In this document: positions 1 through 53,769 of the stretch, in pieces
How the letters are laid out: each line of letters opens with the position of its first letter
Numbering within the stretch: the stretch's first letter is position 1
Assembly (NCBI GenBank): GCA_043228905.1
Contig: JBHGNT010000010.1
Coordinates: 10,850,001-10,914,000 of the forward strand
Direction of reading: 5' to 3'
DNA length: 64,000 nt
Source: Azolla caroliniana
Lineage: Eukaryota > Plantae > Polypodiophyta
The notes under the pieces: model-generated
Seen by the model: the letters and a program-made list of their open reading frames with translations, nothing else
Databases searched by the model: none
What the model was told of the DNA's origin: nothing
Position numbers and translations under genes: made by a program

Positions 1-86
1 AACGCCTGGCGGTACAAAGCCGGCAATTCTGTTTATTACGAGACACGTTATACCACAAAGGTGCGGACGGTATATGGCAACGAGCG

Positions 87-1397
87 GTGCGCAACGACGA
101 GAAAGAGGTAATACTACGGGAAGCACACTACGGGGTTGTGGGAGGCCATTATGCCGAGGATGCTACGGCAAGGAAGATATGGCAAAGTGGCCTATGGTGG
201 CCGACTACATTGAAAGACGCAGTCCGGTACGCGAAAGAGTGTGATCTATGCCAGCCAATGGGCCAGCCAACGAAACAAGCTAGGATGTCGCACCAGCCAG
301 TACTACCGCTAGAACCATTTCAAAAATGGGGACTGGATTTTGTTGGACCATTTAAACCACCGGCAATGAGAACTGGCAACCGGTATGTGATCGTCGCGAT
401 GGACTTTTGCACTAAATGGGTGGAAGCCAAAGCCCTACGAGACAACACCGCGGCGTTGACGGCAAAATTCTTATACGAATACATTTGGTGCCGGTACGGA
501 TGCCCCATAGAGCTGATAAGCGACCAAGGAGGGCACTTTCTTGGACAAGTAGTGGAGAGCTTGACGTCATTCTATGCGGTAGTACATAAACGGAGCACCC
601 CGTACTACCCACAAGCCAACGGATTAGCTGAGTCAACAAAAAAAACGCTACAGAATATTCTGCGCAAGATCGTCAATGAAAATCGGATAGATTGGGGCAC
701 GAAGCTGCACAGTGCGCTTTGGGCTTACCGGACAGCGTACAAAACAAGCATCCGAACAACGTCGTTCCGGTTAGCATTCGGATTAGAGGCAGTCATGCTG
801 GTTGAGTTCCAGGTACCGAGCTTACGAATCCAGATTCGGGAACGACTTAATGAAAAGGAATCGAAGGCAATTCGGTTAAAGGCTCTGTGTGAACTAGAAG
901 AACACCGACTGGCGAGCATCATGCACCTGGAATTGGAACAACGGCGACGGAAAGCGTTTGTAGATCGGCACCGGAAGGGAAACGAAAAGATGTTCGAAAT
1001 CGCCAAGCCGGTACTAGTGTTCCAGACCTGGATGGGTAAAATGCCAGGCAAACTACCGTTTAGATGGACCGGACCGTACTGGATCACACGCGGGTTCAAT
1101 GGGTCTTACCAGTTAGGGACACTTGCCGGCGAGGTGCTGGGTAAATGGGTCAACGGATTTGGACTAAAGCCATACAAAGGACCTATGCCCAAGAACCCAT
1201 TTGAACGAAGGGCCGCCACCGAATCAAAAGCCAGCAGGCCAACCACGACGGCAACCCGTGAGGAAAACAGCTACCACCAAGCCGGTAACGAGGAGCACGA
1301 GTCAGTAACCGGGGAAAGCATAACGATTGCAAACCGTCAAGAGGCCGGCAAGGTGCGCGTTTCGGGTAAGGGTCCGACAGGACCGGACAAAAATTAA
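87..1397 (+). CDS. Gypsy integrase (C-terminal part of Pol)
   Basis: HHCC zinc finger (AHYGVVGGH...CDLCQ), rve core (WGLDFVGP...LISDQGGHF...PQANGLAES), GPY/F motif (RWTGPYWI), no chromodomain. The frame is open upstream of 87. Confidence 0.92.
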   Translation: MRNDEKEVILREAHYGVVGGHYAEDATARKIWQSGLWWPTTLKDAVRYAKECDLCQPMGQPTKQARMSHQPVLPLEPFQKWGLDFVGPFKPPAMRTGNRYVIVAMDFCTKWVEAKALRDNTAALTAKFLYEYIWCRYGCPIELISDQGGHFLGQVVESLTSFYAVVHKRSTPYYPQANGLAESTKKTLQNILRKIVNENRIDWGTKLHSALWAYRTAYKTSIRTTSFRLAFGLEAVMLVEFQVPSLRIQIRERLNEKESKAIRLKALCELEEHRLASIMHLELEQRRRKAFVDRHRKGNEKMFEIAKPVLVFQTWMGKMPGKLPFRWTGPYWITRGFNGSYQLGTLAGEVLGKWVNGFGLKPYKGPMPKNPFERRAATESKASRPTTTATREENSYHQAGNEEHESVTGESITIANRQEAGKVRVSGKGPTGPDKN

Positions 1398-1813: not shown

Positions 1814-4576
1814 ATGGACTGCCAAACACTGTCTGAAGCCACCAAGAAATGGTTACGGCAACATGGACTGGAGGGTTTCTTGACGATCATGGAGGCGGCG
1901 CCACACAAGGAGGCCAAAAAGATTATCAAAGAAATCGACATAGAGGTGATCACGGAGGAGGCGATCCGTGTGTTAACAGGCCTTCCGGAGGAGGGCATCT
2001 ACACGATCGACAATCCTACCTCCGAGCAGCTCATCAAATATTTCGGTGAGTATTCTCTCGCCAGCAAAGGCTACAAGACACAAGGCGGCGAAGACATTTT
2101 ATTCCGCGAAATTGCCCATGTACTCCATGAGTTCTGCCACGTATACCCTCCACCCCCCATTATGCCTCAGAACCGAGCAGGCTTGATTATCGCGATGTAC
2201 GAAGGGGTCAAGGTGGATTGGTCGGTGCTGATCGCCGACGGGTTGTGTACAGCTATTGATATCGTAAGAGGAAAGGATGGCAGGGAAGGCCGGAAAATAT
2301 GGCATGCGGTGATGCAATGGCTCACCCTATTGGCGCCACCGGTCGAGCCCGTCTAGACCAAGAAGTGGGGAAGAGCAACGGACGGCACCCCGAAACCTGC
2401 TTCGAAACGGCAACAGTTATTGGCCTCCAAGGCCATTAAGGGGAAGACGGCCGACGCAGAGAAGGCGGCAAAGGAGCGCGCCAGCCGGAAGCGGCCGACG
2501 GACGCACATGAGGAGACACCGGCACGGCCCCTGAAGTGCCCACTCCACCGACCGGTGCAGCAAGAAACAGACACCCTGGCGGCAAGAATGAATGTCGGGA
2601 CTCAAGCGGAGGAAATGGAGGAAGAACCCATGGAGCACCTCCAACTGCGGCCGGTGAAGAGCACCGCTGAATCAGCCAAGAAGCGTTCGGACCCACAGAA
2701 GGATGGAACGCCTGCAACCCACACTGAGCATCCCACGCCAAGGGAGGCACCGGAACCGGTTCGGATGGAATCGATCACAAAAGTCCCTGCACAATAGGCA
2801 ACACCGGCAAGCCTCGTAACTCAAGAGCCGGTTATACAAGGGCCAACCTCCTCAGCCAGCCAAGAACAATAAGACAAGGGGCGGCTAGCCGGATCACACC
2901 TAGAGTTGGAACGGCAAAGTGGTCAGCAGGCAAAACCAGAAGTGCAGCTCAACGCAGTAAGGCGGGACCAACCACCGGCAAGTGAACCCATCAGCCAACC
3001 CGCCGTGCAGACGCAACAATAGTGCATCGGCAACCAATGGCTCCGGTGGATAGGAGAACAAATTACCGGAGTAGTCGGATGCATAGAGGCGGAAGAAAGA
3101 GCGCAAACGGAATGGTTGCTCGTCACAACCGATGAACTGGAGACGGCCCGGTCAAGGATTTGGTGCCTCGAACAAGACTTGGATCGGATCACAGGAGACA
3201 TGGCCAAAATGGCCTTAACCGCAACGCAAATCCAAGCACCGGTGACTTTGGTTGATGTACATATGAATAAGACCCCGGAGACAGAAACTGTCCCGGAGAA
3301 AGATGCGGCGCAAGCCCAAGAGCTTGCGGAATTACGTGACGAACTTGCCGCACAAGAAGCATTACGGAGCCGCGAACGCAACTTGAAGAAGGCGGCCGAA
3401 GAAGAATTAAAGAAGACTGTTGAGAACCTCCGCCGGGCAGAGGAAAACCTGTGTAAAGGACATCACGCGTACGACCGACTAAAGGAGGAAAAAGAGAAAT
3501 TGTTGCAGGAGAAAGACAAGCTACGACGGATGGCGGAGATGGAAATCGAAAGTCTGAAGGAAGAACTCCGTCAACAGAAGGACCGGGAGGACCGCGCGCG
3601 CTGGCAGATCAACCAGAGGCTGAAGCAGAAGACCGATGATTTTGATCATCTGCACCAGGACTACAAGCAGCTGGAGACGGAGTATAAGCAACAACAGGAA
3701 CGGATGGCCGAGCTCCGGCAAGAAGTTGATAGGGCCACAACGGCACTCGCCGACGAACGAGCTGAGAGTTCCAAGCTATTGGAGGAAGCGGCGATGGACC
3801 GAATGGAGCTCCACAAGCAGAACCATGAAGAAAAGGAAAGGGCGACAATGGTGTTACAGAGGTTGCAAACAACCTATCAAAGTCAATTGTCGCATTATAG
3901 GGAGCAGGAGACGGACACGGTCCGAATCATCAAGCAATTGAAAGAGGAGCGACAAGCCGCAGAGAACAAATCACGGATGGGAACCGAACGGATCCAGTGC
4001 ATCCTCCGGTCATGGCTCACCAAGACCAAAAGCTTGATTGACGAGAGCTCTGTGTGATGGTGGACGAAATGGGCGCAGAATACGAGGGAACTCCAATTGC
4101 TCAGGGCGGACGTGGAAAACCGGTAGAAGGAGGGTGACGACTGTTATACGCTAACATCGGAGGACTTCACCGCCATAAGGGATGAGCTGGCCGAAGATTT
4201 CACAGCCCTGGCGGATGAACAATTGGTGCAGGTCCGACAGCTCATAGCTCAACTGGACGACGATCGGCTGGAGGCTCAAATCCAGTTTGAGATCTATGAG
4301 CGGTCCCGACTTCGGGAAGAAAAAGCGAGGAAGGCGGCAACGGTCAACCTTAGTGATGAGGAACCGTCGCCGGTACAAGGACCAAACGGGGACTAGGCCG
4401 TGGTCAGTCAGCCAGAGACAACTCCGACGGAGGAACCAACGAAGGAAACGTTGGTGCCAGAGCGACAAACGGAGCCGCAGCCCCAAACGGAGCAGCCACA
4501 ACAGCAACAACAGATTCCCAATGAGCCATTGGAAATTCTAAAGCAAAGCATTCTGGACATTTTGGACGAAGCGTAA
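1814..4576 (+). pseudogene. Extra (env-position) ORF of E1, about 920 codons: N-terminal globular domain, Pro/Glu linker, long coiled coil
   Basis: ORF pieces 1535-2356, 2420-2797 and 3116-4057 and the final TAA at 4574-4576 are all in one frame, broken only by point stops. ATG at 1814. Homologous copies at 5088-7510 and 43210-45297. Confidence 0.8.
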
Positions 4577-4630
4577 AAGGGCCAAATAATGGGTTCAACG
4601 TACAAGGTATTGTCCCACGGGCATGCCATG

Positions 4631-5087
4631 TGTTACCCGTCTGGCAAGAAGGCTTAAGGAGGTCCAAACCAAAGTGTGAAAGGAATAGTTTATTCGGGAA
4701 CTGTTGTAATTAGTATTCTTAATATATATTAATATATGAGAAGATGTGGACGGACGGACCGGAATCGGTATGCCGATCCGGATCCGGACCGATCCCAAAA
4801 AGGTGCCAGTTGGCACCGTTTTGTACTTTGCACCGGAGACCTATATAAAGGCCCGGTTACAATGTAATCGACAGCGGATAATTAATAGAACTTATTGCCT
4901 TAATCTTTCAGTATTGATTACCGTTCTGTACTCATTGTTATATCTTACGCGTGTTAATGATGTGTGCTAAGTAATCGATTAAGGTCTAATTAAACGTTGT
5001 GTCGTAAGTCATCCTGCCGTAACACCCTTTGGTGAAGTGTCTTAAGTGGACACCCTGTGTTAGGTTGTCTGGCCCCTAGGATTAACA
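4631..5087 (+). repeat. 3' LTR of E1 (457 bp)
   Basis: TGTTA...TAACA termini, + strand TATA (CTATATAAAGG), similar to the E2 and E3 LTRs. Confidence 0.85.
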
Positions 5088-8059
5088 GTTTCATTATTGC
5101 TCTCATACACAGGGGTGCAAGTGGATTGGTCGGTAATCATCGCCGATTGCTTGCGGACAACGATAGAATCAGTGCAGAACGGCAAGAAATTATGGACGGT
5201 CGTGGCTCAATGGATGACTCTCTTGGCGCCACCGGTGGAGCCGATAAGACTAAGAAGCGGGTTCAAGTAACGAAGACCACGCCCCACAAACCTTCAAAGC
5301 GGCAGCAACTCCTAGCCAAGCACACGCCCTGATGGAAAGAGGGCAGTACCTCGCAGCAATGGAAAGAACAGCCTAGCCGGAAGAGGCAAGCAGAGACAGC
5401 GACACCAGTGGAGCCACCAGTAAGGCCGCTTAAAATCAAGTTGCGCCGACAGGAATAAGAGCTGAACCACTTGACAACGAAGATCAATATGCTTCTAGTG
5501 ACATAGGAGGAGACGGAGGAAGACCCTGTCGATAACCTCCTACGTCACTAGAAGCATAGTGACGAAGTGCAAAAGGGGGACGAATCGGGTCCAGTGAAGC
5601 ACATCGCACCGACACCCCGTTCCGTAGGACTGGAGCCAAGGAAGGAGGCGGAACTGGTTCAACCAGAACCGATGAAAGAGTTACCTGTGCGGCAAGAAGC
5701 AACAATGCCGGTGGTCCAAGAACCGGTAATCGAATTGCCTACCTCACCGAGACAGCAGGCATAGCAAGAGCAAGAGTTGTCGCTGCAATCAACAATCCAA
5801 AAAGGGCTTCCGGTGAGAACAGAGGCCACACCACAACCAGAACCGGCACGACAAAAAGGCATCTGCAGTCAATGGCTACGGTGGATTGGCGAGTAGGTGG
5901 CCGGGGTCGTGTGCCAAATAGAAATGGAGGAGAGAGCACAGGGGAACCGGTTGTTCTCCACAACCGAAGAACTTGAGAAGGCCCGGTCGAGGATCCGGAG
6001 CAAAGCAGAGGCGACTAAGCAGGTCATAGAAGGACCAATACTACCAGAACCGGTGGCTCTGGTGAATGAACAAACCAATAAGACGCCGATAATTGAAATA
6101 GCACCGGATACGAATAAGGCACAAGAATAAGAACTTGCCACTCTCAGAGAGGAATTAGCAGCCCAAGAGGCCTTAAGGGCTAGAGAACGAGACCTAAAGA
6201 AGGCGACGGAGGAAGAACAACGGAAAACGGCAGAGAACCTCCGAAAAGCTGAGGACAACCTACGGAAGGGTCATCAAGCATATGACCGATTGAAGGAAGA
6301 AAAAGAAAAGTTGTTGCAAGAAAAGGACAAACTCCGGCGATCGACGGAAGTCGAGATCGAGCGGCTCCAAGAAGAACTCCGGCAACAGAAGGACTGTGAG
6401 GACCGGGCCTAACACCAACTCAATCAGAGGCTGAAATAGAAAACGGAGGATTTTGACAGGTTGCACGGGATCACAAGCACCTAGAGGTGGAACACAAGAA
6501 ATTGATGGCAGAAGGTGACCGGCAGCAAGAGAAGATGCGGGAACTCCGAGATGAAGTCAACAGGACAGCAACGACATTGGCGGAAGAAAGGACCAAGGGA
6601 GTCGAAGCGGAAAAGATGCTGGCAGAAGCAACAAAGGACAGAATGGAGCTTACCTGGCAGCATCATGAGGAGATGGAACGAGCAAAGATGGCTCTGAACA
6701 GAGTTCAGACGACTTATCAAACGCAACTGATGCAGTATCAGGGACAAGCTAAGGCAACCGTGATCCTCATAAAGAAATTAAAGGATGAAAAGCAAGCCGC
6801 AAAGGAGAAGTCAAATATGGGACTTGGCCGTATTCGAGACATTGTACTGACATGGAAGGGACCAAACGAAGAGGTTAGTTGAAAGAAATTCAGTACAGTG
6901 GTGGTCCAAATGGGCAAAGCAGGCAGCCGAGTTGTAGGTCCTGCGAGCGGATGCGGAGAACCGGCAAAAGGACGGCGATAACTTCTACAAACTAGACGAG
7001 GAAAGCGTTATGACCATACAGGAAGAGTTATCGGATGACGTCCTGTCCTTGGCTGAAGAGCAACTGGTGGCGGTGGGCCAGCTGGTGGAACAACTGGATG
7101 ACGACCAGCTAGATACCCAACTCTAGTTCGAGCGATACGAACGGGAACGGAGACAACAAATGGTGACTAGAAGAACGATGACAATTAACATTAGTGACGA
7201 AGAGCAATCTCCGGAGCAGACGCCGAATGCAGCAGAAATCAGAGGAAGCCAGCTAAATGTAACTCAAGTGGAATAGTCGAACCAGCAAGAGCTAGTGCAA
7301 GCCGGACGTCGGGAGCAAGAGGAGCCCAGAACAGATGAGTCGAAGAGGGAAGCCTGGAAGGGACTAGAGCCGGAAGGGTCAGGAGCCAGAAAGGAGGAGC
7401 AGGCTGGAGAGCAACAGCAACAACAGGCACCACAACAAACGGAGCAACTACCCGAAGAACCTCTAGAACCCTTGGACCAAAGCATTCTGGACATTTTGAC
7501 GGACGATTGAAAAGGGCTAACTGTGGGTTCAACATACAATGTGTTGTCCCACGGGCGTGCCATGTGTTGGCCGGCAAGACCAAAGGGTCGGTTAGAGTCC
7601 AAACTGTGAAAGGGGTATTTAATTAGGGATAGGGAGTTGTTATTAATCAATATTATGTTATTTTGAGAAGCTAAATATTATGTTATTTTGAGAGGCGGGC
7701 GGACGGACCGGAATCGATATGCAGATTCGGATCTGGACTTGATCGTTGCCAGTTGCTGGTTGGCACTGGTTTGTAACTTAGCCGAAGACCTATAAAAGGA
7801 CCCGGCAAGAATGTAATCAAAGACAGATAATTAATAGAAGGGTTGCTATTTTACATATTGTTTAGTGTCTATTTGATTACCGTTCTGTGCTTAATATAAT
7901 TAATCTTACGCGTGTGTTACGATCATTAACAGTGTTGGTTAGAAACCGGTTAAGACCCATTCGATATCGCGGTCCATCCATATCTCACCGTACCACCCTT
8001 TGGTGAAGTGTTCCATAAGGACACCCTGTGTTAGGGCTTGTCCAGCCTAAAGGATAACA
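5088..8059 (+). mobile_element. Related Gypsy element E2, 3' part: degraded extra ORF (5088-7510) and 3' LTR (7565-8059)
   Basis: Starts mid-ORF directly after the E1 LTR, in the region homologous to GVKVDWSVLIAD. Ends in EPLDQSILDILTDD*. LTR TGTTGG...ATAACA. Confidence 0.85.
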
Positions 8060-22300: not shown

Positions 22301-22420
22301 GTTGGTGTCAACTCCACCTCACAGCATTGCTGTTTTCTAGGAGATATGACCAAAAAAGTGATTGTTGTACCATGTTTGGATGAATTCCTAGAGACAGGGT
22401 CAAATAAACAACAAAAATAG
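13014..22420 (+). CDS. RPC4: DNA-directed RNA polymerase III subunit RPC4 (NRPC4/POLR3D homolog), 11 coding exons, 345 aa
   Basis: GT-AG exons with consistent phase: 13014-13058, 13155-13235, 17183-17241, 17334-17391, 17458-17509, 17606-17746, 18215-18276, 18990-19044, 21101-21174, 21270-21521, 22262-22420 (1038 nt including stop). Plant RPC4 motifs: RKAKFAPKVPTRR, RVAFG, WDLSKYYPVTLPL, ILFFQLPSFLP, GHMGKLLVYSSGAVKLRLGDTLYE, CVFAQELVGVN...CCFLG...KVIVVP. The first two exons are less certain. Confidence 0.9.
13271..13312. repeat. (GA)n microsatellite in RPC4 intron 2
   Basis: Pure AG run. Confidence 0.95.
14361..15545 (+). mobile_element. Non-autonomous hAT DNA transposon in RPC4 intron 2
   Basis: Short TIR CATAGAA...TTCTATG, perfect 8-bp TSD TTCTGTAT (14353-14360 and 15546-15553), BED-finger remnant IQCKYCNHTYVGGSQWIRVHLLG at ~15345-15416. 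Confidence 0.85.
14478..15180 (+). repeat. Tandem array of about six tRNA-like units inside the hAT element
   Basis: Recurrent AGCTCACCCTAGTGGTAAG. The first two units also carry GGGTTCGATTCCC / GGGTTCAATTCCC. Unit length is about 100-150 bp. Confidence 0.8.
20065..20680 (+). mobile_element. 5'-truncated LINE remnant in RPC4 intron 8
   Basis: VESEEHYVCHCSVFYEIR resembles the C-terminal E-x-E-x-H-x-x-x-x-C zinc-binding tail of non-LTR ORF2. Boundaries are approximate. Confidence 0.55.
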
Positions 22421-24879: not shown

Positions 24880-25872
24880 TGATTATCATTCCTTGGCCCA
24901 ACTCCACTCCATGAAAATAGCGAAGCTATTAGACAAATTCAGGGATGATTAGTTTCAACTCGCTCTCGAGTTAGAAGCATACGAGGCCGAACAAATTCAG
25001 AGGGAAGGAGAACAGAAGAAAGGCCAGAAAATGGAACACATCCAACTCCTCGACAACAAATCGAGTGGGAATTCCCAGGAATTGGCCAACAACGCAACAG
25101 AGCAAGCCAAACAGGCTGAGGTGGTCAAAGCCAATGACTAGCCGATTGAGACCCAGCAAGACTTCGCCACCCGATAGTCGGACGAGCACGACACTCACGT
25201 CGAATCACCCCGAAAAATAGACCATGAGAATCTGAATAACGAAGGGGTGATTGACGAAATGCTAGCGACTATGACGACAGAGGAGGAACGAATAGAGGAC
25301 GCCCCGACACCACCTCGGCATCGATGAGTTGGCTCAGTCCGGAGCCGACCATTTTGCATATTTTTGACAATGACTAGTAGGGTCCCACAAGCGTGCCAGG
25401 TGTTGGCCGGCCAAGACGGCCCAAGTGTGAAAAGGCCACGGACGGTTACGGGTAGGATCAAAGACAGGCGGGGCCGGACAAGGAGCTAGGAAAACGTCTA
25501 TAACGTAATTAGTGGAAATGGTAGCGGTTCACGTCGAGACTTAACCACCCATGCTCCCTATAAAAAGGGACATGGAAAGATGTAAAAAGAGAGTGTTATC
25601 AGTGTATTAAGTCTATGTCTCATAATAGAATATGTGTTTGCTTATACTATGTCCCTTTGTTGAGAACATAATGTGTGTTGAGCGTCTCTAGTCTTTTACT
25701 ATGTATTGTATTGCACATTACCAGTTAGTTGTCGCCAGCTCGGATCATAGTCTCCATAGTCACTACCACTCGACTCGTAAACCACGTAGGTGTTGCACCT
25801 CATTCGTATCATCGGCGTCTCTCCGACAATCCGTCTACGTCTCCCTACCACAAGACCTTGAGTCGGATAACA
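24880..25872 (+). mobile_element. Divergent E1-family remnant E4: C-terminus of the extra ORF and 3' LTR (25401-25872)
   Basis: FQLALELEAYE...PTILHIFDND* resembles AQIQFEIYE...QSILDILDEA*. LTR TGTTGGCCGG...GATAACA has termini like E2. Confidence 0.7.
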
Positions 25873-35660: not shown

Positions 35661-37919
35661 GTCGATGTCTGACTCGGTTTTCTTCCCTTCGCGAACATTG
35701 CGGTGCCATCGTCAGTGGAGTCGAGGATGAACATCCTCCCGTCTCTGCGCCCTTGCGCAATCACACGACCTTCTTCCTCAATGAAGCACCCGAGGTGTGT
35801 AAACCGAACCTCCATCCCTTGGTCGACGATCTGTCCGACCAAGACCAAGTTCTTCGTGATTGTCGGAACATGCAACACGTTCATGAGTTTCCCTTTCTGC
35901 CCGACATGGCTAAGGGGAACTTCTCCGACATTCACGATCGGATGCGGAGTGTCGTCTCCAGTTGCGACTACTCTAGGTTGTATCGGTTTTTCAAGGTACG
36001 AGAACCACTCCTTATGACTCCGAAGGGTGCGTGGGAAAATCTGAAGAAGATCTTCGCCGCGAGCACCACAGCCAGGAAGCTTCAGCTCCGACAGGAGTTG
36101 AGCAACCTACGACAACGCAACTTGTCGGTGGCGGATTATACCTCAAAGATCAAGGATATCTGCGACTCCCTCGCCTCCATAGAGGTGAACATCGAGGAGA
36201 GTCGCACCAAATCGATTATGTCTCTATTGCGGAGGGCCAGGGCATATCGGAGTAAACTGTCCACATAGGCCAAGAAGACAGGTAAATGAAGTAGTGGGTT
36301 GTACTAAACCCGAGTCTATTTCATTAGAAAATTCTAATAGTTCTAATAGTACTAATAGCCCAAATCTATCGAACAAATTTGAAGTCCTTAGTCAATTAAA
36401 AGAAGGGTTAAACGACTAAGTCCAGCCAAAATAGGAACCATTTGGTTAGACAGTCCTAGATTTGTGCAGCCCATTAGTGGTTCCATTCCCTCTAAGCAAG
36501 TTAGCAATGTGTTTTTAGCTCAAGTAATGGTTAGTACTAAAAGTACTCCTCCAGTACATGTCTTAGCACAATGACTGGTACCAACAAACCCAAGGACCTA
36601 CTCATAGGATTGCAACCATTTCGCTACATCAATTTTGTGAAGGAGGATGCAAGGAAGCAATGTTTGTCTTCGCAGTATTAGTAATACATTCCAACACCAC
36701 TAAAGAGGAATATACAATTCAACTTCCAGAGAAGTATTGTCATTATGCCGACGTGTTCGATAAGGTACAAGCTAGTATGCTTCCTCAGCACTGATTGTAT
36801 GATTGTCCCATTGATTTACAACCGGGAAAAGAACCACCATGAGGACCGATCTACAACTTGTCACCAACCGAGCTAGAAGTCCTTCGAGTCTACATAGAGG
36901 AGAATTTGGCAAACGGTTTTATTCGACATTCGAAATCTCTAGCCGGCGTACCCATTTTCTTTGTCAAGAAAAAGGATGGATCACTTCGTCTCGTCGTAGA
37001 TTATTGTGGCTTGAATAAGGTCACCATCAGGAATAGGTATGCACTTCCCCTTATCTCAAGTCTTTTAGAACAGATCAATGGTGCAAAGTTCTTCACAAAG
37101 ATCGACATATGAGAAGCATATAACCTTGTATGGATCTGACCAAGAGATGAATGGAAGACCTCGTTTCGCACCAGATATGGGCACTTCGAGTATACGGTTA
37201 TGCAATTCGGTCTCACTCATACGCCAACAGTCTTCCATTACATTGCAAATGATATATTCTGAGATCTCTTGGATATTTGTTTGATCATCTATTTGGATGA
37301 GCTACTGGTTTATTCGAAGACTCAAGAAGAACATGATTCTCATGTACTATTAGTACTAAAACGACTTCGAGAACATGGTCTTTATGCAAAACTAGAAAAA
37401 TGTAGTTTCGAGTGCAACCAGGTGGAATTTCTAGGCTATATCATCTTCTCGGAAGGCATCTCTATGGATCCAGCTTAGGTCAAAACTGTGGTAGAGTGGC
37501 AGAATCCACGTTCGTTGTGACAGTTTGAATCCCTTCCAACTGGAAGCACCACCTGTCCTCGTCATCGTCTTTGCATCTAGAGTTACCATCATCATCGTTC
37601 TTGCTTCTGGAGTTACCATCATCAACATCCTTGTCTTCTACGTCATCATTTTCAACACCTCTTCGCCCAACCATCGTCTTCATCAACACTACTTGTCATC
37701 ATGTTTAGGTATCATTTTGCATCACGGTTTCAATCACTCACCTTCTAGTTTCAATGGGGGTCACTATCGCTCACTTTCCTAGTGGGGATCGCATGGGTTT
37801 CTCGCTAGCGCTGCCGTTTGTGTTGTGTTTTGGGTCAACCTTGACTATTTACCCTCTCATAATAGAAGAAGTCAAGTCAGCCGCTTCACTTGCACTCCTT
37901 CACCCATTCATGTAATAGT

Positions 37920-38572
37920 TCCCAATGAGGACCGCATGGTCACTCACTCCTGTTCATGTTCTAGTTCTCAGTGAGGACCACATGGTCACTCACATCATTC
38001 GTGTTCCAGTTCCCGGTGAGGGCCGCATGGTCGCTCACTCCCGTTCATGTTCTAGTTCTCTGTGAGACCTCATGGTCGCTCACATCGTTAGTATTCTAGT
38101 TCCCGGTGAGCATCCCATGGTCGCTCACTCCCATTCGTGTTCTGCTTCTCGGTGAGGACCGAATGGTCTCTCACATCGTTCGTGTTCTAGTTCCCGGTGA
38201 GGGCCGCATGGTCGCTCACTCTCTTTCATGTTCCAGTTTTCGGTGTGGACAACATGGTTGCTCACTCCCTTTCATGTTCCAGTTCTTGATGAGGACCGCA
38301 TGGTCACTCACACCCGTTCGTGTTTCTGATGAGGACCGCACATGGTCGCTCACGTTCCGATTCCCAGTGAGTCCCACACATGGTTGCTCACGCCCACTCG
38401 TGTTCAAGTTCTCGGTGAGAACCGCATGGTCACTCACTCTCGTTCATGTTCTAGTTCCCGTTGAGGGCCGCATGGTCGCATACTCCCGTTCGTGATCCAG
38501 TTCTCTCACTCTCGTTCATGTTCCAGTTCTCGGTGAGGACCGTATGGTCACTCACGACCGTTCATGTTCCCA
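37920..38572. repeat. Minisatellite, about 14 units of 45-46 bp
   Basis: CATGGTC(A/G)CTCAC-like core at about 37935, 37981, 38026, 38071, 38116, 38162, 38207, 38253, 38299 and onward. Confidence 0.9.
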
Positions 38573-39057
38573 GGTACGGACTATCGATAATTCGAATGTC
38601 ATGATGGATTACTATTCTTTAAGAAACTCTTGTATGTTCCTAATGGTTCTTGTTGCCTTCGAGTAGTCCAAAATTGTCATGAAACATATATAACGGGGCA
38701 TTTCGGTAGTACTAAAACGTTGGATTTAGTACAACGATCATTCTGGTGGCCTTATATGCGACGATTTGTCAAAGACTATGTTCGGACATGTGATACATGA
38801 TGTAGAGCAAAGATGCCAAGACATCATCCATATGGTTTATTGGAACCATTACCAATTCCAAGCAAGCCGTGGCAATCCATTTCTCTAGATTTCATCACAG
38901 ATCTTCTAGTTTCAAAGGGATTCAATGCGATCTTAACAATAGTAGATCAATATATGAAGGTAGCACATTTTCTGCCTTGTACTAAGGAAATCATTAGTGA
39001 AGAAACTGTCATGCGTGAGGTATGTCGGCATCATGGCCTCCACGATAGTATCATCAA

Positions 39058-39897: not shown

Positions 39898-41472
39898 ATC
39901 ATTAGCGACCGTGGACCCCAATTCGTCTCGAAATTCTAGAAGCATCTCTTCAAAATGCTCAAGGTCACTTGTAACCACTCATCCGACTACCACTTGCAAA
40001 CAAATGGACAAGAAGAACGAACAAATCAAACGTTGGAACAATATCTTCAGTGTTTTCTAAGCTATCAACAAGATGACTAGGCATATATTCTCCACTTTAC
40101 CGAATTTGCATATAATAACTTTGTCCACTCATCAACTAGGGTTACACCATTTTATGCTTATACAAGCTATCATCCTCGGTGGTGTGTATTCGAAACTCCA
40201 GAGTTACCCACAAATCCTTGTGCAGAGAATCGTTTGGAGCGGCTACACAAGATACAAGCAGACTTATCTACTCATTTACAACAAGCTAAACAAACACAAA
40301 AGGATTTGTTGGGAAATCGGTCCCTTCGGATGGGATCTGATTATGAATGAAGAGGACCCGGTGAGAACCGGAAGAGAAGACATATTTGTAAATATGTTTT
40401 GAGTAAGCCTATTGAGGCTATATTTGTAAATAGCCCTAAGTTCATATAAGTATAAATATGACTTAGGGCAATCACTCTATAAGTGTTTTTGGTGTTGTCA
40501 TATTGTTGTATGTGCATAACTGTTGTATAGACTAAGGGAGGGAGAGAGAGAGAGAACGAGGGAGTAGCTACGAGCACTTTCTGTTGTAACCACCGTCTGG
40601 CGAAGATCACGAGCATGAGGTCGTTGCCTCTGTGACTCCACTTTGTATTTTCCTCTCATATAGTGATAGTTCGGAGTCTGCGGGCTCCCGTGGTTTTTCC
40701 CTATTAGGGTTTTCCACGTAAACATCTTGTGTACTCTCTATAGTTCGTGTGTGTACGTGCGTTCACTCCCTACTTCCCATTTCTGTGTTTGATTCTCATT
40801 GAAGTGATTCAAGACTCGGTTGTGGCCAAGCAATATTCCGCGTCATTACTCTTCAAACTAGTATCAAAGCGAACAACACATGAAATGGAAGAATCGTTCG
40901 GCGGCATGTTCAATCTCACCGGCTCCAACTACTTAATGTGGAAGTCAAAGATGAGGGATATGCTGGTGGTTAAAGATCTTTGGTTGCCAGTTCAATTCAG
41001 GGACAAGAGATCGGATAAGATCGGCGCCCTAGTGTGGAAGGTGACGCACATGAAGATGACGACATACATTCGGTGCTTCATCGACATGAGCCTATACAAC
41101 AACTTCAATGAAGAGAGCAAGGCTCATGAACTCTAGGAGAAGATCGGCATCATGTTCCAGAACAAGAATGTCGTTAATCGGGTTTCGGTATTCCGGAAGG
41201 TAGTGAGGCTCCGGTACCAGGACGACTCCAGTATGGTAGAGCACATGAATCCCTTCTAGGGGCTGATACATCAAGCCACCTCATTGGAAGTACCTATCGT
41301 CGATGAGGTACTCACATTACTCCTGCTCGGTTCCCTCCCGGATAGTTGGGAGACGCTAGTTGTCACGTTGGGCAACGCCGAGCCGGAAGGAAAACAATTG
41401 TCCCTAGCAAGGGTAAAATCAAGCTTGCTAGATGAAGAAACTCGTCGGAAGGACTGGGAGTCCAAAACCGAT

Positions 41473-44400
41473 TGTTACCGGCCGACAAAGGAGTCCAAAG
41501 TGGGAAACGGAGAGCTAATTAAGTAGTAGGAATGTGGTTGTAATTAAGCTATGAGTGTGGACGGACGGACCGGAAGCGGTATGCCATTCCGGATCCGGAC
41601 CGATCCCGAACAGGTGCGGATGGCACCGTTTTGTAATACAGACCGGAAACCTATTTAAAGGCCCGGATACAATGTAATAGTAAGCGGTTAATTAATGAAA
41701 GCTTAAGTGTTGTTATATCTCTGTGTTAATTGCCGTTCTGTCTTAATTGTTATATCTTACGCGTGTTATGAAGACGATCCTAATAAGTAACTTGATTAAG
41801 TCGGATTAAGCGTTGAAGTCTAATCCGGTTGCCGTAACACCCTTTGGTGAAGTGTCTCCCGTAGACACCCTGTGTTAGGCCATTGTCCGGCCCGAAGAGT
41901 TAACACAGTTTTTTGCGACCACGATTCCTGTTTTTTGTAGCGAACGACGGCACGAATGGATGTCTAGATCAACGCACGACCTGGTTACAGATCGAACTCG
42001 ACGCCTCGCCGAAAGGCAAAGGAGACGCGAGGCTTTCTAGCAAGCGGCGCAGGAAATTAGAGCGGATCGCTCGTTTTCCAACGTAATCCGGAGAGTAGCG
42101 GAGGACTCCCTCTGGTTACAGCAAACATCGCACCCGGATGACGGCAGTAGCCTAAGCAACCTCCGGGAAACCGAATCCCTTCTCCACGCGTTGGCAAACG
42201 GAGAAGGCAAAGCAGAGGCCTTTTCAGCATATGAATCGGACTCCGAAGGGGAATACAGCGTGCACAGGAACTACCGTAGCAGCAACGAAACCCCGGGCGG
42301 ACCGGAGGACGAAGGATCAGATACCTTACCGACACCGGAATCAGAACTGGAAGTGCTAACGCTGGAACCCCCGGAACCAGCAGAAGAAGAACGACCTCCG
42401 ACACCGGAAGTCGAGGAGGAGAGGCCTCCGTCACCAAAGGAAGAGAAACAACCGACACCGGAATCAAATCAGGAAAGACCACCGACACCGGAGAAAATTC
42501 CGGAACGAGCACCAACACTACCAGCCCGCGCACCGATACCAGACGACGACATGCCGTTCCAGTACTCCAAGTATAGAGATGATCCGGACGCAGAAGCTCA
42601 TGTGCACGCATTTGAACAGACATGGGAAGCCAACCATGTGTCCCAGCGACTGACACCGGAGGAAGAAGAACGCTCTAAGATAGCAGAGTTTGGCGTCACA
42701 TTGGAGGGACCGGCAGCAAGATGGCGCCGGACGCAGGACCCGTCTACCATCAACACCTTTGCAGATTTAAAAGCTAAATTCATGCATTTTTTTCAAAAGG
42801 AGGTGGACCAGACCGTAATGGTAGGCTTATTTTATACCATCCGGCAAGAGGCAAGGGAGAGCATTCCCCAATTTGTCATCCGGTTTCAACGGATGCATAG
42901 TCAGCTTACCCGTGCACCCCCGGAGGAGGAATTACGGACGATATTCCTAAACGCGCTCCAGGAACCCCTACGCACGGTTTGCACAGTAATCGATTTCCGC
43001 ACAAGTACCATCGACCAGGTCATTGACCGGGTGAAAGAGATGGAAAAGACAAGCTCCTGGCTCACACTGGGCGCACTTCAACGGGCGTTACCGTCCGATA
43101 AAGACCTCCGGTTTCGGCAAGCAATACAGTGCACAACCTGCTTGAATTCCGGACACTCGGCTCTAGAATGCACTATGAGGACGCAATGTGTAATCTGTCA
43201 ATCCAAGAGCCGCCCAACGGAGGCGCAAGAGGAACCACCGGCACGGCCCGTAAAGGTCACACTCCGCCGACCGGTGAATCGCGAAGTGGACCCCTTGGCG
43301 GCAAAACTCAATGCCGGAGCTCAGGAGGAGGAAATAGAGGAGGAGCCTACGGAGCACCTCCAGCGATGGTCGTCGGCAAGGACCGTTGAGACAGCCGGGA
43401 AACGTTCGGACCCTCAGACGGAGGGAACACCGGCTCCCCATATTGAGACTCCTACGCCAAGGAAGGAACCGGAACCGGTGCAGATGGCACCGGAAACAGA
43501 AGCCCCGGCACCACCGGCAACACCGGCAAGTCCCATCCCGCCAGAGCCGGAAAGGTCACTGCAGCCTCCCTCGGTCAGCCAAGAAGAAGCGCAAGGGGAC
43601 CAAGGACAACATGATGGTCCACGGGCAGAAACGGAACTGCAACTCGGCGCAACCAGGCGGGACCACCCCTCTACAAGTGAGCCCATCTATCAAACCTCCG
43701 TGCAAGCACAACAAGGCACCGGTAGCCTGTGGCTCCGGTGGATAGGGGAACAGATAGCCGGAGCAGTGGGGTATATAGAGGCGGAAGAAAGAGCGCAAAG
43801 CGAACGGTTGCTCGTCACAACCGAACAACTAGAGATGGCCCGGTCCAGAATCCGGTGCCTTGAAAAAGATTTGGATCAGGTCACGACAGAGATGGCCAAA
43901 ATACGGATCCAATCACCGGTGACTCCGGTAAGTGTACAAAATAATGAAACGGAACGACCTGTACATAGGAATAAGACCCCGGCAACGGAAACCGTTCCGG
44001 CGAGAGATGCAGCGTAAGCTCAGGAGCTTGCGGAATTGAGAGATGAACTTGCCGCACAAGAAGCGCTAAGGAGCCGGGAACGAGAATTGAAGACGGCGGC
44101 CGAAGCCGAATTAAAGAAGGCTGCTGAGAACCTCCGCCGGGCAGAGGAGAGCCTCCGGAAAGGCCATCAAGCGTACGACCGGCTAAAGGAGGAGAAAGAC
44201 AAAGTGCTGCAGGAAAAGGACAAGCTGCGAAAAACGGCGGAAACGGAGATTGAACGGCTAAAGGAAGAGCTCCGCCAGCAGAAGGACCGCGAGGACCGGG
44301 CCCGTCGTCAGATCAACGCACGGCTCAAGCAAAAGACGGATGATTTTGAGCACCTGCACCGGGACTACAAACGGCTGGAAATGGAGCATAAAGAACGGAT

Positions 44401-45784
44401 GGCCGAGCTCCAGCAGGCAGTTGATCGGGCCGCGACGGCGATCGCCGACAAACGGGCGGAAAATACAAGACGCTTGGAAGAGGCGGAGAAGGTCCGGATG
44501 GAGCTCTAGAGGCAGCAACAAGAAGACAAAGAGAGAGCGTCAACAGTATTGCAGAAATTACAAAGTACATATCAAAGGCAATTGACGCATTACAAGGCGC
44601 AGGCGGAGGACAACGTAAAAATCATCAAACAACTGAAGGAGGAACGGCAAGCGGCGGAAACCAAATCGCAATTGGGAACGAGCCGGATTCAGTCCATCCT
44701 CCGAGCATGGCTGAATCAGACGAAGCACTTGATTGATGAAAGCTCCGTAAAATGGTGGACAAAGTGGGCACAAAACGCGACGGAACTCCAGTTGCTACGG
44801 GCGGATGTGGCAAACCGGCGGAAGGAAGGAGATGACTATTATACGTTGACTTCCGAGGACTTCATCGCCATACAGGACGAGCTGGCCGACGACTTCCAAG
44901 TCCTGGCAGATGAACAGCTGGCGCAGGTCAGGCAGCTCGTAGCTCAGCTGGACGATGATAGGCTGGACGCTCAATTTAGTTTGAAAGCTACGAGCAGTCC
45001 CGGGTACGGGAAGAAAAAGCACAGGAAGCGACAACGGTTAACCTTAGTGATGAGGAACCGTCGTCGGCTGAGGGCCAGCCGGGAACCAGTCAACCGGAGA
45101 CCACCACGACGCAGGGAGCAACGACGGAGACGCCGGTGTCAGAGCCACAAACGGAGGAGCAGCCGCAACAACCACCAACGGACCCGCCGCAGCAGACAAC
45201 AACAGAGCAGCAACAGCAGCAGCAACAACAACCACTTCTAGATGAACCATTGGAGCCTCTCGAACAGAGCATTCTGGACATTTTGGACGAAGAATAGCAA
45301 GGGTCGGTTGTGGATTCGACATACAAGGTACTGTCCCATGGGCGTGCCATGTGTTACCGGCCGGCAAAGGAGTCCAGAGTGGGAAACGGAGAGCTAATTA
45401 AGTAGTAGGAATGTGGTTGTAATTAAGCTATGAGTGTGGACGGACGGACCGGAAGCGGTATGCCGTTCCGGATCCGGACCGATCCCGAACAGGTGCGGAT
45501 GGCACCGTTTTGTAATACAGACCGGAAACCTATTTAAAGGCCCGGATACAATGTAATAGTTAGCGGTTAATTAATGAAAGCTTAAGCGTTGTTATATCTC
45601 TGTGTTAATTGCCGTTCTGTCTTAATTGTTATATCTTACGCGTGTTATGAAGACGATCCTAATAAGTAACTTGATTAAGTCGGATTAAGCGTTGAAGTCT
45701 AATCCGGTTGCCGTAACACCCTTTGGTGAAGTGTCTCCCGTAGACACCCTGTGTTAGGCCATTGTCAGGCCCGAAGAGTTAACA
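41473..45784 (+). mobile_element. Structurally complete non-autonomous E1-family element E3 (4312 bp)
   Basis: 433-bp LTRs at 41473-41905 and 45352-45784 (about 6 mismatches by eye), perfect TSD CCGAT, no pol domains. Confidence 0.95.
41960..45297 (+). pseudogene. Gag::extra-ORF in-frame fusion of E3 (longest open piece 42191-44017, 608 aa)
   Basis: Retrotransposon gag core (FGVTLEGPAARW...IRQEARESIPQFVIRF), CCHC knuckle CTTCLNSGHSALEC and half of a second one, then a switch at ~43210 to RPTEAQEEPPARP, which matches E1 RPTDAHEETPARP. Several point stops and one late frameshift. Confidence 0.85.
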
Positions 45785-48700
45785 CCGATCCGAAGGCCTT
45801 GATCACGAAAGATGACCACAACCGGGGAAGAGGCCGGTATCGGAGTCCCCAAAACCGGGACAAATCGGGGACGAGGTCGAAGTCAATGGCTCCGGAGGCC
45901 TACTTGCTTCTATTGTGGGAGGCCGGGGCACTTCCAGAAGAACTGTCGGCATTTCCGGAAAGAGAAAGAAACTGGCACTACCGATTCGACGAAGAGTTCG
46001 GACCGAAACGGTTCGGACCGGAGAGGCCCGGATCGGAAGGGAACGTCGGCAATCGTGACAAGTGAGGAAGAATTGATGCTCATTACCAAGGAGAATGAGT
46101 TAAACCTTGTCGGCGACGAGACAATGTGGGTTGTCGATTCCGGAACGTCGTTCCACTTGACACCGGACCGGAGATGCTTCTCATCCTACATAGCCGGAGA
46201 TCATGGTTGTGTCTGGATGGGGAATGAAAGGACCTGCCGAATTGTCAGCATAGGAGATGTGTTGTTGACAACATCAACCGGATGCAAGTTGCTGCTGAAG
46301 GATGTCTGACACGTTCCAGAGCTTCTACTAAACCTGATATCAGTCGGTCGGCTAGATGATGAAGGCTACACAGGTAACATCCGGAATGGAGTTATGAAGT
46401 TCAGCAAAGGGAGCCTAATAGTGGCTAGAGCCTGGAAGGTCAGCACACTGTACTTGATGAATGCCCAGATATGCAGAGAAGAATTGAACGTAGCATCCGA
46501 CACTACCGGTGAGTTGTGGCAGAAGAGGTTGTGTCACATGAGTCAAAAGGGGATGAAGAGACTTGTCGAAGACAATCTCATTCCAGTGAAGGACGTGCAA
46601 CTTAAGAAGTGCACCGATTGCCTGGCCGACAAGCAAAACCGAACCTCCTTCCTGTCAAGACCACCGATGAGACAGAATGCACCACTGGAGCTAGTACATA
46701 CTGATGTGTGTCAAGTGGACACGAAGTCTCATGCGGGATTGCAGTACTTCGTGACGTTCATAGATGACCACAACTGGAAGCTGTGGGTCTCACCGTTGAA
46801 GACGAAGGATCAGGTGCTATCCGTCTTCAACGAACTCCACGCGAGAGTGGAAAGAGAAACCGGCCGGAAGCTGAAGGTGGTTTGAGCAGATAACGGAGGA
46901 GAATACCGGGGGCAGTTCGAGGAGTACTACCGGTCGAAAGGAATCCAGCTTGAATTCACCGTGCCGAAGACGTCGTAATTGAACGTTGTTGTGGAGAAAA
47001 CCGTCCCTAGGTGGAATGGGAGAATGATGTGCATGAACCGGCCCTTACATGCGGGCACAAGTTTTGTTGTAATGTACATATTTATTTAGGTACAAGTCGG
47101 CTGATGTGAATATCCTAGGTTGCACAGATTTGATAGGTAGGAAATCGAGGCATATCTCTATCCGAAAGGACAGAGAGAATAAAGAGCATGTAACAAGTTG
47201 TAACGGCCTCCCTTCTTGGGCTATAAAAGAGAGGGAGAGGAATCGTAAAAGGGATCGCTTTTGTCGAGGAAGAAGTGCTGTCAGACTAGGACGAGGTTCT
47301 TCTCCTCCGTCTTGCTCTGTGCAGGTTTTCGGGAGGCTGACTCTGCTCCGCGGAACGCCTGAGTGCTTCCGGCAGAGTCTCCATCTCACTCTTCTGTGTG
47401 CGTGTGCGTAGCCGTAGGAGTTTTGTTGCTCACCGGCCTACCGGTTATAACCTTTCTTTTCATCAGAATATATACATACATATACGCGTTCGTCTCGTTT
47501 CTGTTGTTTCATTCAGTTGCGGTTTTTGTGTATCTGCGTGCATGTGTGTGGAAGCACAACCGTCGTCTCTCTTGCTCCTACTCCTTTTCGATTATTCCTC
47601 GGTCCAAGACCCCCGTGGTCCTGCCTCATTCTATATGCACTCGCGTAGCAACGTGACATATTTGGTGAACCCGACGTGAAAGGCGGTAGAGGAATAGAAA
47701 GATGAGGGGATCAGAGCTTGTAGAAGCCATGGCTGCAGCTGTGGATCGGATAGTGAGTGCGCGTGAAGGCATTGAAGCGATCGTCGGCACGATAGGCCGG
47801 TTCGGTGGAAAGGACACCACGAGCTATTTGGAGGCCTACCGAGCCGAAATGGTGGTGAGGGACATTCCGGAGGACAGGCGACTGGCCGGATTCCCTCGGG
47901 TGGCAATGCCAGGCATCCACGTAGAGGTGCTCGAGGTACAGGCTGAGAGCCGGACCGGGGAAGAGTTTGAAGGTCGCCCCCTTGAGAAATACGGGCTTGA
48001 TGATGCGCTTCGGCTATCGAAGCGGGACTTCATGGAATGGGTGGAGACCCCCAAAAAGGGGAGAAACACGTCGGTGCTCCTCCGGGAGTTTGAAGAATGC
48101 TTCGCATGTCTTTCGTCACTAGACTAGACCGTACAGGACACAAGTCATGTCCTATTGTTCGTTAAATCGGTGGATGTGAGGGACCGGGAGCAAGTGGGCC
48201 TCCTGCTAAAGACCGAGGACGGGCTGACGGCCGACTGGGCCGTGGTGAAGAGAGTCTGCGGCCGTTTCGACAAACGGTGAGAGTGGGTCGATAAAGGCTC
48301 GACGGGGGCATGCTCTGTTGCGGCAAGGAAGCTCAAGGTATCCCCACCGGCGCGAAGGGAGGAGACTTGAGATCGGCTCGACTTCGACCAGCGTGGTCAA
48401 GGGGCCGTCCGGAGGTGCGACTCTAGAGGAGCTGAATCAGATGGTGAGGGACCTCTAGATTGCCCAAACATGGAGGGATGGTGGTGAACAAGCCTGCGAC
48501 CGAAGGCCTCCGGCTGGGCATCAGTGCTTGTGGTGTGACGTGGTCAGCCACGCCTGGAAGGACTACGGGGAATTCGCCGAAGCAATAAGGTCTAATGTGC
48601 TGTACCTGTGGAACGGGCGAGTACACGTTAGCGAAACCAGGAGGGCCCTGGAACTGAACGTCAGACGAAGGGGAATGAAGCGGCTAATGGAAGAAGCGGT

Positions 48701-51885: not shown

Positions 51886-53769
51886 AACACCGGGTCATTT
51901 GAAACAGGTAATATGTCGTATTCTCTTTTGGCATAGTTGGCCAGATGTAGAAAAGTACCCTATTTTAGCCCGATATCGAAAATATATGATGCATGCGTAC
52001 CCTTTTTGCGACTTGATGGTTAAACATAGAACAAAAAAAACCTAGCAATTATTAAATTGTATATGTGTCCACATTCGTGTCAATTTGCATATCATGGAGC
52101 ACAATTGAAGACTTGGTTCAATATAAAGTTCTAAAATTGGTATCCATATTCAAATTGTAGAGTAAAACTACATAAACCGTAATTATAAATATGTGGTTTT
52201 GGGTTTAGGAATAAAGTAGTACCCCACTTGTTGGACGGGTATATCGATAGTTTCATTGTATAATGTCATATAGTTCATGACAATGTAATTGGTAAGAGTA
52301 ACAACTACGTACGACATTCATTTATACTATGTGGAACCAGTAGACTTGAACCGTAGGTAACTAAAAACCTCTTATTATCAAAAGCATTCGCCTTTTCATA
52401 TACAGTCATGCTAACGGAAATGAGAAATTACAATATCATGTTAATATCTCAAACTGAAGAAGAGCATGGTGACCAATTATATGTAAATACAAACTACGGT
52501 TCCAATAATGATTAACAAGGGAAATTATGAACAGGTGAATTTAATTAAACGATAAACAATTACAGATGTTCTCATATACAAATATAATATGAAGTGATGG
52601 TGAACATTATGCCTCAAAATCCCCGTCCGATTTTGTTGTTATCAATAACAGCACCCCATCCTCCTCGACATAGGAGAGACACCATTCAAGTTCGGGGTAA
52701 TCCTTATATTTCACCTCAACCGTTTTTTCCTCTTGCGTACTACCTTTGTTGATTTTGGTAGTAGCCACAAATGACTTGGATCCTCCTTCCCCCGTGGAGT
52801 CAAATAAAATCTTTTTACTCGTGTCCTTGATGAAGGAGCCAGAATCTCGTTTTGTCGGAGATCGAATCTTCAATCTAAATGAAGGAACTTTTTGTCTGGG
52901 TTCACTGAAATTAAAAACGTTGGTGAAAACATAGAAACAACGTACAATTTTATCTAAATCACGCAAATTATCATCTAAATTACGTCAATTTTATTGTCCC
53001 ATGCTATAGTTTTTTATCGCAAAAACAACATTTTTTTCAACGCAAATCCGTTGCACTGCATCGGAATTGCGTTGAAAGTCATGCCTTTCAACCAAAATCC
53101 GCTGCACTGCATCGGATTTGCATGACTTTCAACCAAAATCCGATGCAGTGCATCGGATTTTGGTTGAAGGTCCTGCCTTTCATAATTTCTTTCCAAGTTC
53201 GTTGTACAAAAAAAATAAAAAATTCTATGTGTTGAGGAAAGGAATCTTTAAGGAATCTTTAAGGAATGTTTAAGGAGAAAATCCCAAACATGGTGTCAAA
53301 CGAAATACAGAGAATAACCAGAAGCAATTCTCATAACCACAAAGATCTTGGGTTGGAATTGGATGAGGATAATGCTTTGATTGCCACTAATGATGAGGAT
53401 GAGACGTCAGAATGCTCTTCTAGTCCATCAGACATGTCTTAACATATTGGTTTGGTTCAAGTTGGGGATTGTTTTACTACATGTTCGGAAATTTTGTAAA
53501 TTTGTTTTGGATGTAAACTCACGAATATGTATAATTGTAACTGGTAGACATGTTGTACATTATTTTGTAATTTTGGTGATGTATTTTTGGAGGCATTTTA
53601 CTTATGCCTCAAAGTGGTAGTCATGTTGAAATTCAATATATTTTGCCACCTTTTCTGAAAAGCTTTACGCATGCGTCATGTCTTTTTGAAAACTGTGTGC
53701 TTTTGTGCCCTTTTTTGACGTAGTGTTCTCATAATGCGACATATTACCTGTTTCAAATGACCTGGTGTT
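51886..53769. mobile_element. Unclassified non-autonomous TIR DNA transposon (1884 bp) inside the 3' LTR of B
   Basis: About 37-bp TIR AACACC(G/A)GGTCATTTGAAACAGGTAATATGTCG(T/C)ATT, 4-bp TSD ATGG. The empty site is visible in the sister LTR near 57561. Confidence 0.88.

Follow-up and report, generated by a model that had tools for sequence, protein, structure and literature searches.

How is the second DNA strand of an LTR retrotransposon started when no polypurine tract (PPT) lies where one is expected? Plus-strand priming by an RNase H-resistant PPT is treated as general for LTR retrotransposons and retroviruses, and the variety of primers known from the text of the same sources (whole tRNA, half tRNA, self-priming) concerns only the first strand (PMC6317226, PMC5371799). 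The question is raised by a 64,000-nt stretch of the Azolla caroliniana genome, hereafter the window (GCA_043228905.1, contig JBHGNT010000010.1, positions 10,850,001-10,914,000, forward strand), in which an initial annotation had placed a tRNA-like motif directly before the 3' LTRs of four Gypsy elements, at 45308-45349 in element E3 and at corresponding junctions in E1, E2 and E4. All four motifs are present, each on the plus strand (Table 1).

E3 is the only copy with both flanks. Its 433-nt LTRs differ at 6 of 432 aligned positions and are enclosed by a CCGAT target site duplication, so that the LTR edge can be placed without using the motif; the CCA at the end of the motif therefore stops exactly 2 nt before the LTR, as the annotation had stated. 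Within E3, gag is joined in frame to the back half of an extra sense ORF and all of pol is absent, which makes the element non-autonomous. The insertion (41473-45784) is a gag-extra-ORF fusion without pol that lies in a Copia-type coding region. The segment before its 3' LTR, which we call the cassette, is made up of a T-arm block, an insert and a 17-nt core that is one base shorter than the corresponding part of a cloverleaf; the minus-strand complement of this core would form a tRNA-matching primer binding site (PBS). Gag and integrase point in the same direction as the cassette, with matches to PF03732 and to PF00665/PF17921 on the plus strand. The claim that the LTR TATA boxes also point this way holds for E1 and E3, while the box of E2 was missed by our strict pattern; the same pattern found no TATA-like box on the minus strand of E1-E3.

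Table 1. Coordinates of the family's features in the window.
Feature	Positions	Strand	Remarks
E1 integrase, end of pol	3..1397	+	PF00665, PF17921
E1 extra sense ORF between pol and cassette	1814..4576	+	stops present; no Pfam family
E1 tRNA-sense cassette	4587..4628	+	core 4612-4628
E1 3' LTR	4631..5087	+	
E2 tRNA-sense cassette	7521..7562	+	core 7546-7562
E2 3' LTR	7565..8059	+	
E4 17-nt core only	25382..25398	+	followed by GG and an LTR-like start at 25401
E3 left target site duplication, CCGAT	41468..41472	+	inside Copia-type coding region
E3 5' LTR	41473..41905	+	LTR pair
E3 spacer CAGTTTT, 7 nt, 5' LTR to PBS	41906..41912	+	
E3 plus-strand PBS	41913..41925	+	family start TGG; private T at 41914 in E3
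E3 gag	41960..43205 (end approximate)	+	PF03732 at ~42695-42961, zinc knuckle, one early stop
E3 extra sense ORF, 3' part	43206..45297 (start approximate)	+	coiled coil, acidic tail, stops
E3 T-arm block (tRNA 5' T-stem strand and T-loop to position 58)	45308..45319	+	7/8 of last nt as in proxy tRNA L054
E3 13-nt insert with 4-bp hairpin	45320..45332	+	would loop out between two tRNA-pairing blocks
E3 17-nt core, tRNA 3' end through CCA	45333..45349	+	at the expected place of the PPT
E3 spacer TG, 2 nt, CCA to 3' LTR	45350..45351	+	
E3 3' LTR, TG...CA	45352..45784	+	TATA-like box on + at LTR position 179
E3 right target site duplication, CCGAT	45785..45789	+	

The remaining copies are less complete. 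E1 has integrase, extra ORF, motif and LTR in sequence, and E2 is a 5'-truncated copy with an extra-ORF remnant at ca. 5100-7511. The likeness of E4 to the other copies is confined to its junction, the body being otherwise unrelated; E4 has no T-arm/T-loop block, which corrects the initial annotation. The extra ORF (1814-4576 in E1; 4020-7007 in metagenome locus L018) runs to about 900 codons, has a coiled coil and ends in a conserved acidic tail just before the cassette; it matches no Pfam family above cut-off, and E4 has only a similar tail in common with it. After the stop of this ORF, ca. 50 nt before the CCA, an AAGGG(C) run is seen in E2 (7510-7524), E1, L022, L028 and L039. In E2 it resembles a worn PPT followed by TG, and may possibly be an old tract with the cassette inserted behind it.

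To collect further copies, we scanned a metagenome collection with an 18-nt stretch of the LTR, a selection that is independent of the motif. This produced 47 loci, of which 29 were assigned to the family by LTR similarity and 18 were discarded as chance matches; the loci come from few samples, probably of the same or a close host, and window and loci are thus not independent. Nine of them reach from the extra ORF up to the LTR. Eight of these junctions carry the full cassette followed by CCA, TG and LTR, and the ninth (L024) carries a cassette with an internal deletion and likewise no purine tract. A PPT is consequently found at none of 13 3' junctions (four in the window and nine loci), which bears out the earlier claim: across the 12 complete junctions, the last 15 nt before the LTR are only 40-47% purine, and purines stand in runs of at most 3-4 within the last 30 nt of every copy. 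Ordinary purine tracts do occur elsewhere in the window, before a minus-strand Gypsy LTR at 54083 and before an LTR at 60225. The spacer between CCA and LTR is TG in 11 of 12 copies and GG in E4. Because the same LTR start follows unrelated flanking DNA at five loci (L014, L020, L040, L042 and L045), and because of the target duplication of E3, the CCA lies 2 nt from the true LTR edge. Among the metagenome loci, none holds a whole autonomous element with both LTRs in one contig, and the domain order was pieced together from relatives; three loci (L018, L028, L039) show the order motif-LTR-PBS and may be collapsed assemblies. A scan of viral contigs found neither an integrase relative nor the motif.

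The cassette is conserved well beyond its surroundings. Its blocks have a mean ungapped pairwise identity of 0.85-0.89 (11 copies, E4 omitted); the same copies reach 0.37 in the upstream spacer and 0.43 over LTR positions 8-40. Over 28 pairs from eight copies, identity is 0.71-1.00 for the 38-nt cassette versus 0.56-0.91 for the whole LTR. In the window, a degenerate 17-nt pattern built from the four copies occurs exactly four times, with no mismatch in any of them and even when three are allowed; shuffles give a mean of 0.96 matches, with 0 of 100 reaching four. As the pattern derives from the copies themselves, this shows only that the window has no further ones. To examine conservation in depth, we aligned the contigs of four DNA runs (organisms A-D, three studies; 541-1427 contigs per run) on positions 45180-45480. 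Contig depth is greatest at 45334-45344, over the core, in all four runs, and differences at 8% or more are listed within 45315-45355 only at 45321 and 45339, where E3 has private bases from which 96-99% of the depth differs. Thus, in contigs from four runs and four organisms, no part of the region is better conserved than the motif, a statement about motif-bearing copies only, as the threshold of 80% likeness keeps copies with a normal tract from aligning on the motif.

One rival reading gives the cassette no part in priming: it could serve in RNA packaging, tRNA-mediated dimerization or as a tRNA-fragment decoy, with the plus strand started at a cryptic purine run such as the AAGGG ca. 50 nt upstream. 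A short purine run does follow the extra-ORF stop in most copies, and the PPT of Ty3 is itself short (12 nt), unlike retroviral tracts (PMC5371799). We nevertheless regard this explanation as very improbable: the AAGGG run is poorly conserved (it lies in the spacer of low identity noted above), a DNA end made by priming there should be longer by ca. 45 bases, yet the insertions start precisely with the TG 2 nt after the CCA, and purine runs within the LTR cannot set its left edge.

Neither the window nor the 29 family loci contain a tRNA recognized by ARAGORN. When the two blocks of the cassette were joined into a single pattern, nine loci in viral and prokaryotic contigs matched, five of which ARAGORN called as tRNA-Arg(TCT) and one as an odd tRNA-Asp, with three left without a call. 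The tRNA-Arg identity proposed earlier is therefore supported by these proxies, mostly Arg(TCT), although prokaryotic and viral tRNAs may differ from that of the host. The match is bipartite, again as proposed, with the two blocks on either side of the insert corresponding to a natural tRNA-Arg(TCT) proxy. Read from the CCA, the cassettes agree with one such proxy (L054) over 5-11 unbroken nucleotides, lack one base, and then agree at 5-7 of 7 positions; all 12 are one base short of a tRNA in this way. Beyond the 13-nt insert, which falls between tRNA positions 58 and 59, the T-arm match is 6-8 of 8 in 11 copies and 2 of 8 in E4. Calculated duplexes between proxy and cassette minus strand reach -36 to -53 kcal/mol, against -17.7 +/- 5.5 for 11,630 44-mers of the window, a comparison that is partly circular (the proxy was found by a motif-derived pattern) and uses RNA/RNA parameters. 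G-to-A changes do not separate wobble-tolerated changes from methylation decay, as both predict them. The insert itself has a hairpin in which 97.5% of 40 cells are paired and two of the four pairs have changes on both sides, but the signal is weak, with 19 of 500 shuffles scoring equally high.

The other end of the element also has a tRNA-matching site. In all eight readable 5' junctions of metagenome relatives, the 5' LTR is followed by an ordinary plus-strand PBS, TGGCGACCAC, with TGGCGACCAY standing 7 nt past the LTR; of two further junctions, one is on a contig that stops inside the spacer and the other has a deletion across the site. Position 41914 is G in 98.9-99.8% of contig depth across the four runs. 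The private T of E3 at this position explains why the initial annotation missed this PBS. Most copies fit a tRNA end for only ca. 13 nt, while L046 carries a full 18-nt tRNA complement with cloverleaf spacing, to which five of seven other copies match over 13 nt. A strict pattern for the corresponding tRNA found no locus; a looser one found 71, of which 40 received an ARAGORN call (29 Arg, 5 Trp, 4 Asp, 1 Ser and 1 Glu), all viral tRNAs whose isotype may differ from the host's. In the window (41926-41946) and in L002, L012, L018, L028 and L032, a 4-5 bp hairpin comes after the PBS, with CGAAC behind it. This CGAAC could pair with a T-loop, in a split design like that of the 3' cassette. T-rich spacers before the PBS occur in Athila-type elements.

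The family is thus one with two inward-facing tRNA-matching sites and a purine tract at neither end, whichever strand is packaged. Short derivatives retain both sites: E3, which lacks pol, and L046, which has ca. 470 nt inside. L046 (1055 nt, minus strand) is a mini element consisting of LTR, PBS, an extra-ORF tail, cassette and LTR. Cassette and PBS correspond to different tRNA ends, and pairing between them is weak (-11.5 to -15.3 kcal/mol at four loci), which rules out both self-priming between the two and an origin of the cassette as a simple mirror copy of the PBS.

Three readings had been offered for the cassette: a host tRNA that primes the plus strand on minus-strand DNA, a primer cut from the element's own RNA, or a packaged genome antisense to gag-pol. 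The first fits our data best, the second is less likely, and the third is weakened by the conserved PBS that follows the 5' LTR on the strand coding for gag-pol. Were the packaged RNA antisense, first-strand priming would take place on the complement of the cassette and second-strand priming at the opposite site; a purine tract would still be missing at both ends. The cassette lies at the textbook distance of 2 nt from its LTR and has the longer tRNA match, the plus-strand PBS standing at 7 nt with a fit of ca. 13 nt, and five A's are found near the LTR when the 5' junction is read antisense. We consider an antisense genome quite improbable. The plus strand carries gag-pol, the extra ORF and the TATA-like box, with no minus-strand box found in E1-E3, and the TGG-starting PBS is kept at all eight junctions and in about 99% of contig depth. 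That every cassette is one base short of a tRNA, and that L046 has its full, cloverleaf-spaced PBS on the plus strand, are weak arguments in the same direction, since the PBSs of Ty1 and Ty3 are not copied from tRNA (PMC5371799). A variant in which an A-run behind the 5' LTR acts as the PPT of an antisense genome was rejected, being based on E3 alone; relatives read TGG there.

The 3' end of the plus-strand primer determines where the linear DNA begins on its left, and in this family that point is the CCA; a primer with this end is either a tRNA paired to the minus-strand DNA or the element's own RNA. From the arrangement of the sites, it is probable that host tRNAs prime both DNA strands and that no PPT is used. 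In such a cycle, plus-sense RNA would be packaged and a first tRNA would prime minus-strand DNA at the PBS. After strand transfer, reverse transcriptase would copy the cassette, and RNase H would clear the RNA, exposing the cassette complement as a PBS on DNA. There a tRNA of the tRNA-Arg(UCU) type would pair in two blocks, its acceptor end over ca. 17 bp with one bulged base and its T-arm over 8-12 bp. Between them, where positions 58 and 59 meet, the 13-nt hairpin would loop out, an arrangement comparable to the split PBS of Ty1. From the CCA, reverse transcriptase would write first TG and then the LTR, which would leave two extra bases at the left end of the linear molecule; integrase would be expected to trim these, and RNase H would finally remove the tRNA.

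The alternative at this step is that the tRNA-like stretch of the element's own RNA survives RNase H on the minus-strand DNA, is cut after the CCA and is extended like a PPT, which we think unlikely; it is likewise doubtful that the tRNA likeness is a recognition signal rather than a binding site. RNase H cuts at the CCA end of tRNA primers, and an own-RNA primer would produce an identical end without the need for a second trans factor. The plus strand folds a T-stem hairpin in several copies, E4 retains the 17-nt core alone, and in vitro, without nucleocapsid, RNAs other than the PPT are able to prime (PMC2665208). However, folds of the 44-nt motif have no acceptor stem, the T-loop shape is interrupted by the 13-nt insert, no more than 40-47% of the bases are purines, and an Rfam search over 45200-45450 gave no match at E up to 10. 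Conservation (0.85) extends to the T-loop letters, which lie 30-40 nt from the cut, and pairing is the simpler account of this. Priming by a tRNA is therefore favoured over the element's own RNA, because the two conserved tRNA-matching blocks flank an insert that would destroy a tRNA shape but can be looped out of a duplex. Consistent with tRNA priming of both strands, the insert folds by itself, as expected of a looped-out segment, the relatives keep their acidic RNase H motifs, and the short derivatives keep both sites. Against it, RNase H also accepts a DNA-annealed tRNA as a substrate, and the scheme gives no account of why the plus-strand PBS is 7 nt, not 2 nt, from its LTR. Nucleocapsid acts with RNase H in HIV-1 to suppress the use of RNAs other than the PPT as primers (PMC2665208), which counts against any primer other than a PPT. 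Finally, as E4 lacks the T-arm block and four copies have an extra A in it, this block is not indispensable.

To place the family, we compared its domains and integrase with those of known lineages. It shows Ty3/gypsy features: direct LTRs of the form TG...CA, a target duplication (E3, CCGAT) and the order gag-PR-RT-RH-INT, seen as LTR-PBS-gag-to-RT within one ORF in L032 and as RT-RH-INT in the relatives P0128, P0151 and P0001. In L032, gag, protease and the start of RT come after the PBS in a single plus-strand frame, and the LTR is 94% identical to that of E1. The pol of L018 has 26% identity to P0001 and its own purine tract and LTR at its end; it was assigned to another element and left out. 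As for priming sites, the PBS typical of Ty3/gypsy elements is present at eight of eight readable 5' junctions and the PPT at none of 13 3' junctions. All four acidic RNase H motifs are kept in four of five proteins from relatives. The aRH domain (PF13456) is absent from the listed domains of full-length P0128 and P0151, and scans of P0001, L032 and the E1 integrase were negative; the label "Tat lineage" given earlier is accordingly not sustained, as relatives with full gag-pol lack this domain. No chromodomain was detected in the E1 integrase or P0001, and none is among the listed domains of P0128 and P0151. The family is thus a non-chromovirus Ty3/gypsy lineage without the Tat aRH domain.

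Among named integrases, the nearest come from the fern Adiantum nelumboides and the liverworts Calypogeia and Riccia, which suggests a non-seed plant host. In a quick tree of 47 integrase rows, E1 stands beside the P0128/P0151 relatives and apart from four PF13456-bearing rows; the tree omits 3 of 49 database rows for short coverage, includes no reference lineages and has an open fork near the fern rows. The 5-bp duplication and lack of aRH would fit Athila, although the tree holds no labelled Athila rows, and the duplication of E3 (5 bp, not 4) does not fit Phygy or Selgy. As the groups are described in the text of PMC6317226, the family fits none of them cleanly and fails the Tat test.

The plant non-chromovirus Ty3/gypsy elements of Neumann et al. 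2019 (PMC6317226), namely the OTA groups (Athila, TatI-III, Ogre, Retand) together with Phygy and Selgy, have in common with the Azolla family a single Gag-PR-RT-RH-INT ORF. Further shared features are the lack of a chromodomain, a 5-bp duplication, a non-Met tRNA PBS and an extra ORF in the 3' part. In contrast to these elements, the Azolla family has a tRNA-sense cassette instead of a PPT and, unlike Tat, no aRH. In Athila the PBS is predominantly for tRNA-Asp/Asn (also Ala), whereas the proxies of the Azolla family point to Arg; Phygy and Selgy have 4-bp duplications, in contrast to the 5 bp of E3, and PBSs for tRNA-Trp or -Ala (PMC6317226). The word "fern" is absent from the main text of that paper.

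Split PBSs are known from Ty1 and Ty3, where they engage the acceptor stem and T-arm (PMC5371799). The Azolla cassette resembles them in its two blocks for acceptor stem and T-arm, which in Ty1 are parted by a small internal loop. In Ty1 and Ty3, however, the blocks are complementary to the tRNA in genomic RNA and serve first-strand priming, and a PPT starts the plus strand (PMC5371799); the Azolla 3' site is tRNA-sense in RNA, so that only its DNA complement would be able to bind a tRNA. Helenus (TRIMp3; Kojima 2024, PMC10886601) is likewise an LTR element with tRNA-derived sequence. As described in the available text of that paper, its tRNA-like promoter lies inside the LTRs, PBS and PPT are present and the element is non-coding. 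The Azolla family is unlike it in every tested respect, having a tRNA 3' half outside the LTR, no intact B box, no PPT and coding capacity. A B box is intact in 0 of 12 cassette copies, which rules out a Pol III promoter as in Helenus; an A-box-like match occurs in E4 only.

A search of the open-licence PMC and bioRxiv literature found no description of a tRNA site that replaces the PPT. The architecture is real, is conserved in a high-copy family in the runs of at least four organisms, and has no earlier description in the literature that could be searched; the priming step is what we infer from it. On balance, it seems rather probable that a successful LTR retrotransposon clade of plants has abandoned the PPT and that two different host tRNAs prime its two strands, the second on a split, hairpin-containing site in minus-strand DNA. 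With two inward-facing sites such an element would be nearly symmetric, and RNA of either polarity could in principle be reverse transcribed. If so, a recently mobile, high-copy family with a tRNA site in place of the tract would be a natural exception to PPT priming, the choice of the second-strand primer by RT and RNase H would become testable, and tRNA supply and tRNA fragments would be able to act on the element at a second point. Annotation software that takes orientation from the PBS and PPT can put the family on the wrong strand or call it defective.

The window has several other features. A 342-nt tandem duplication (8352-9035, 96% identical) lies inside a Copia reverse transcriptase remnant, an array of ca. 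45-46-nt units (37903-38595) is apparently within a retroelement region, and nested inverted repeats at 53036-53182 have arms of 47-49 nt that are 88-89% complementary. Exons of a host gene lie at ca. 19500-22400; the product translated from them is similar to the RNA polymerase III subunit RPC4.
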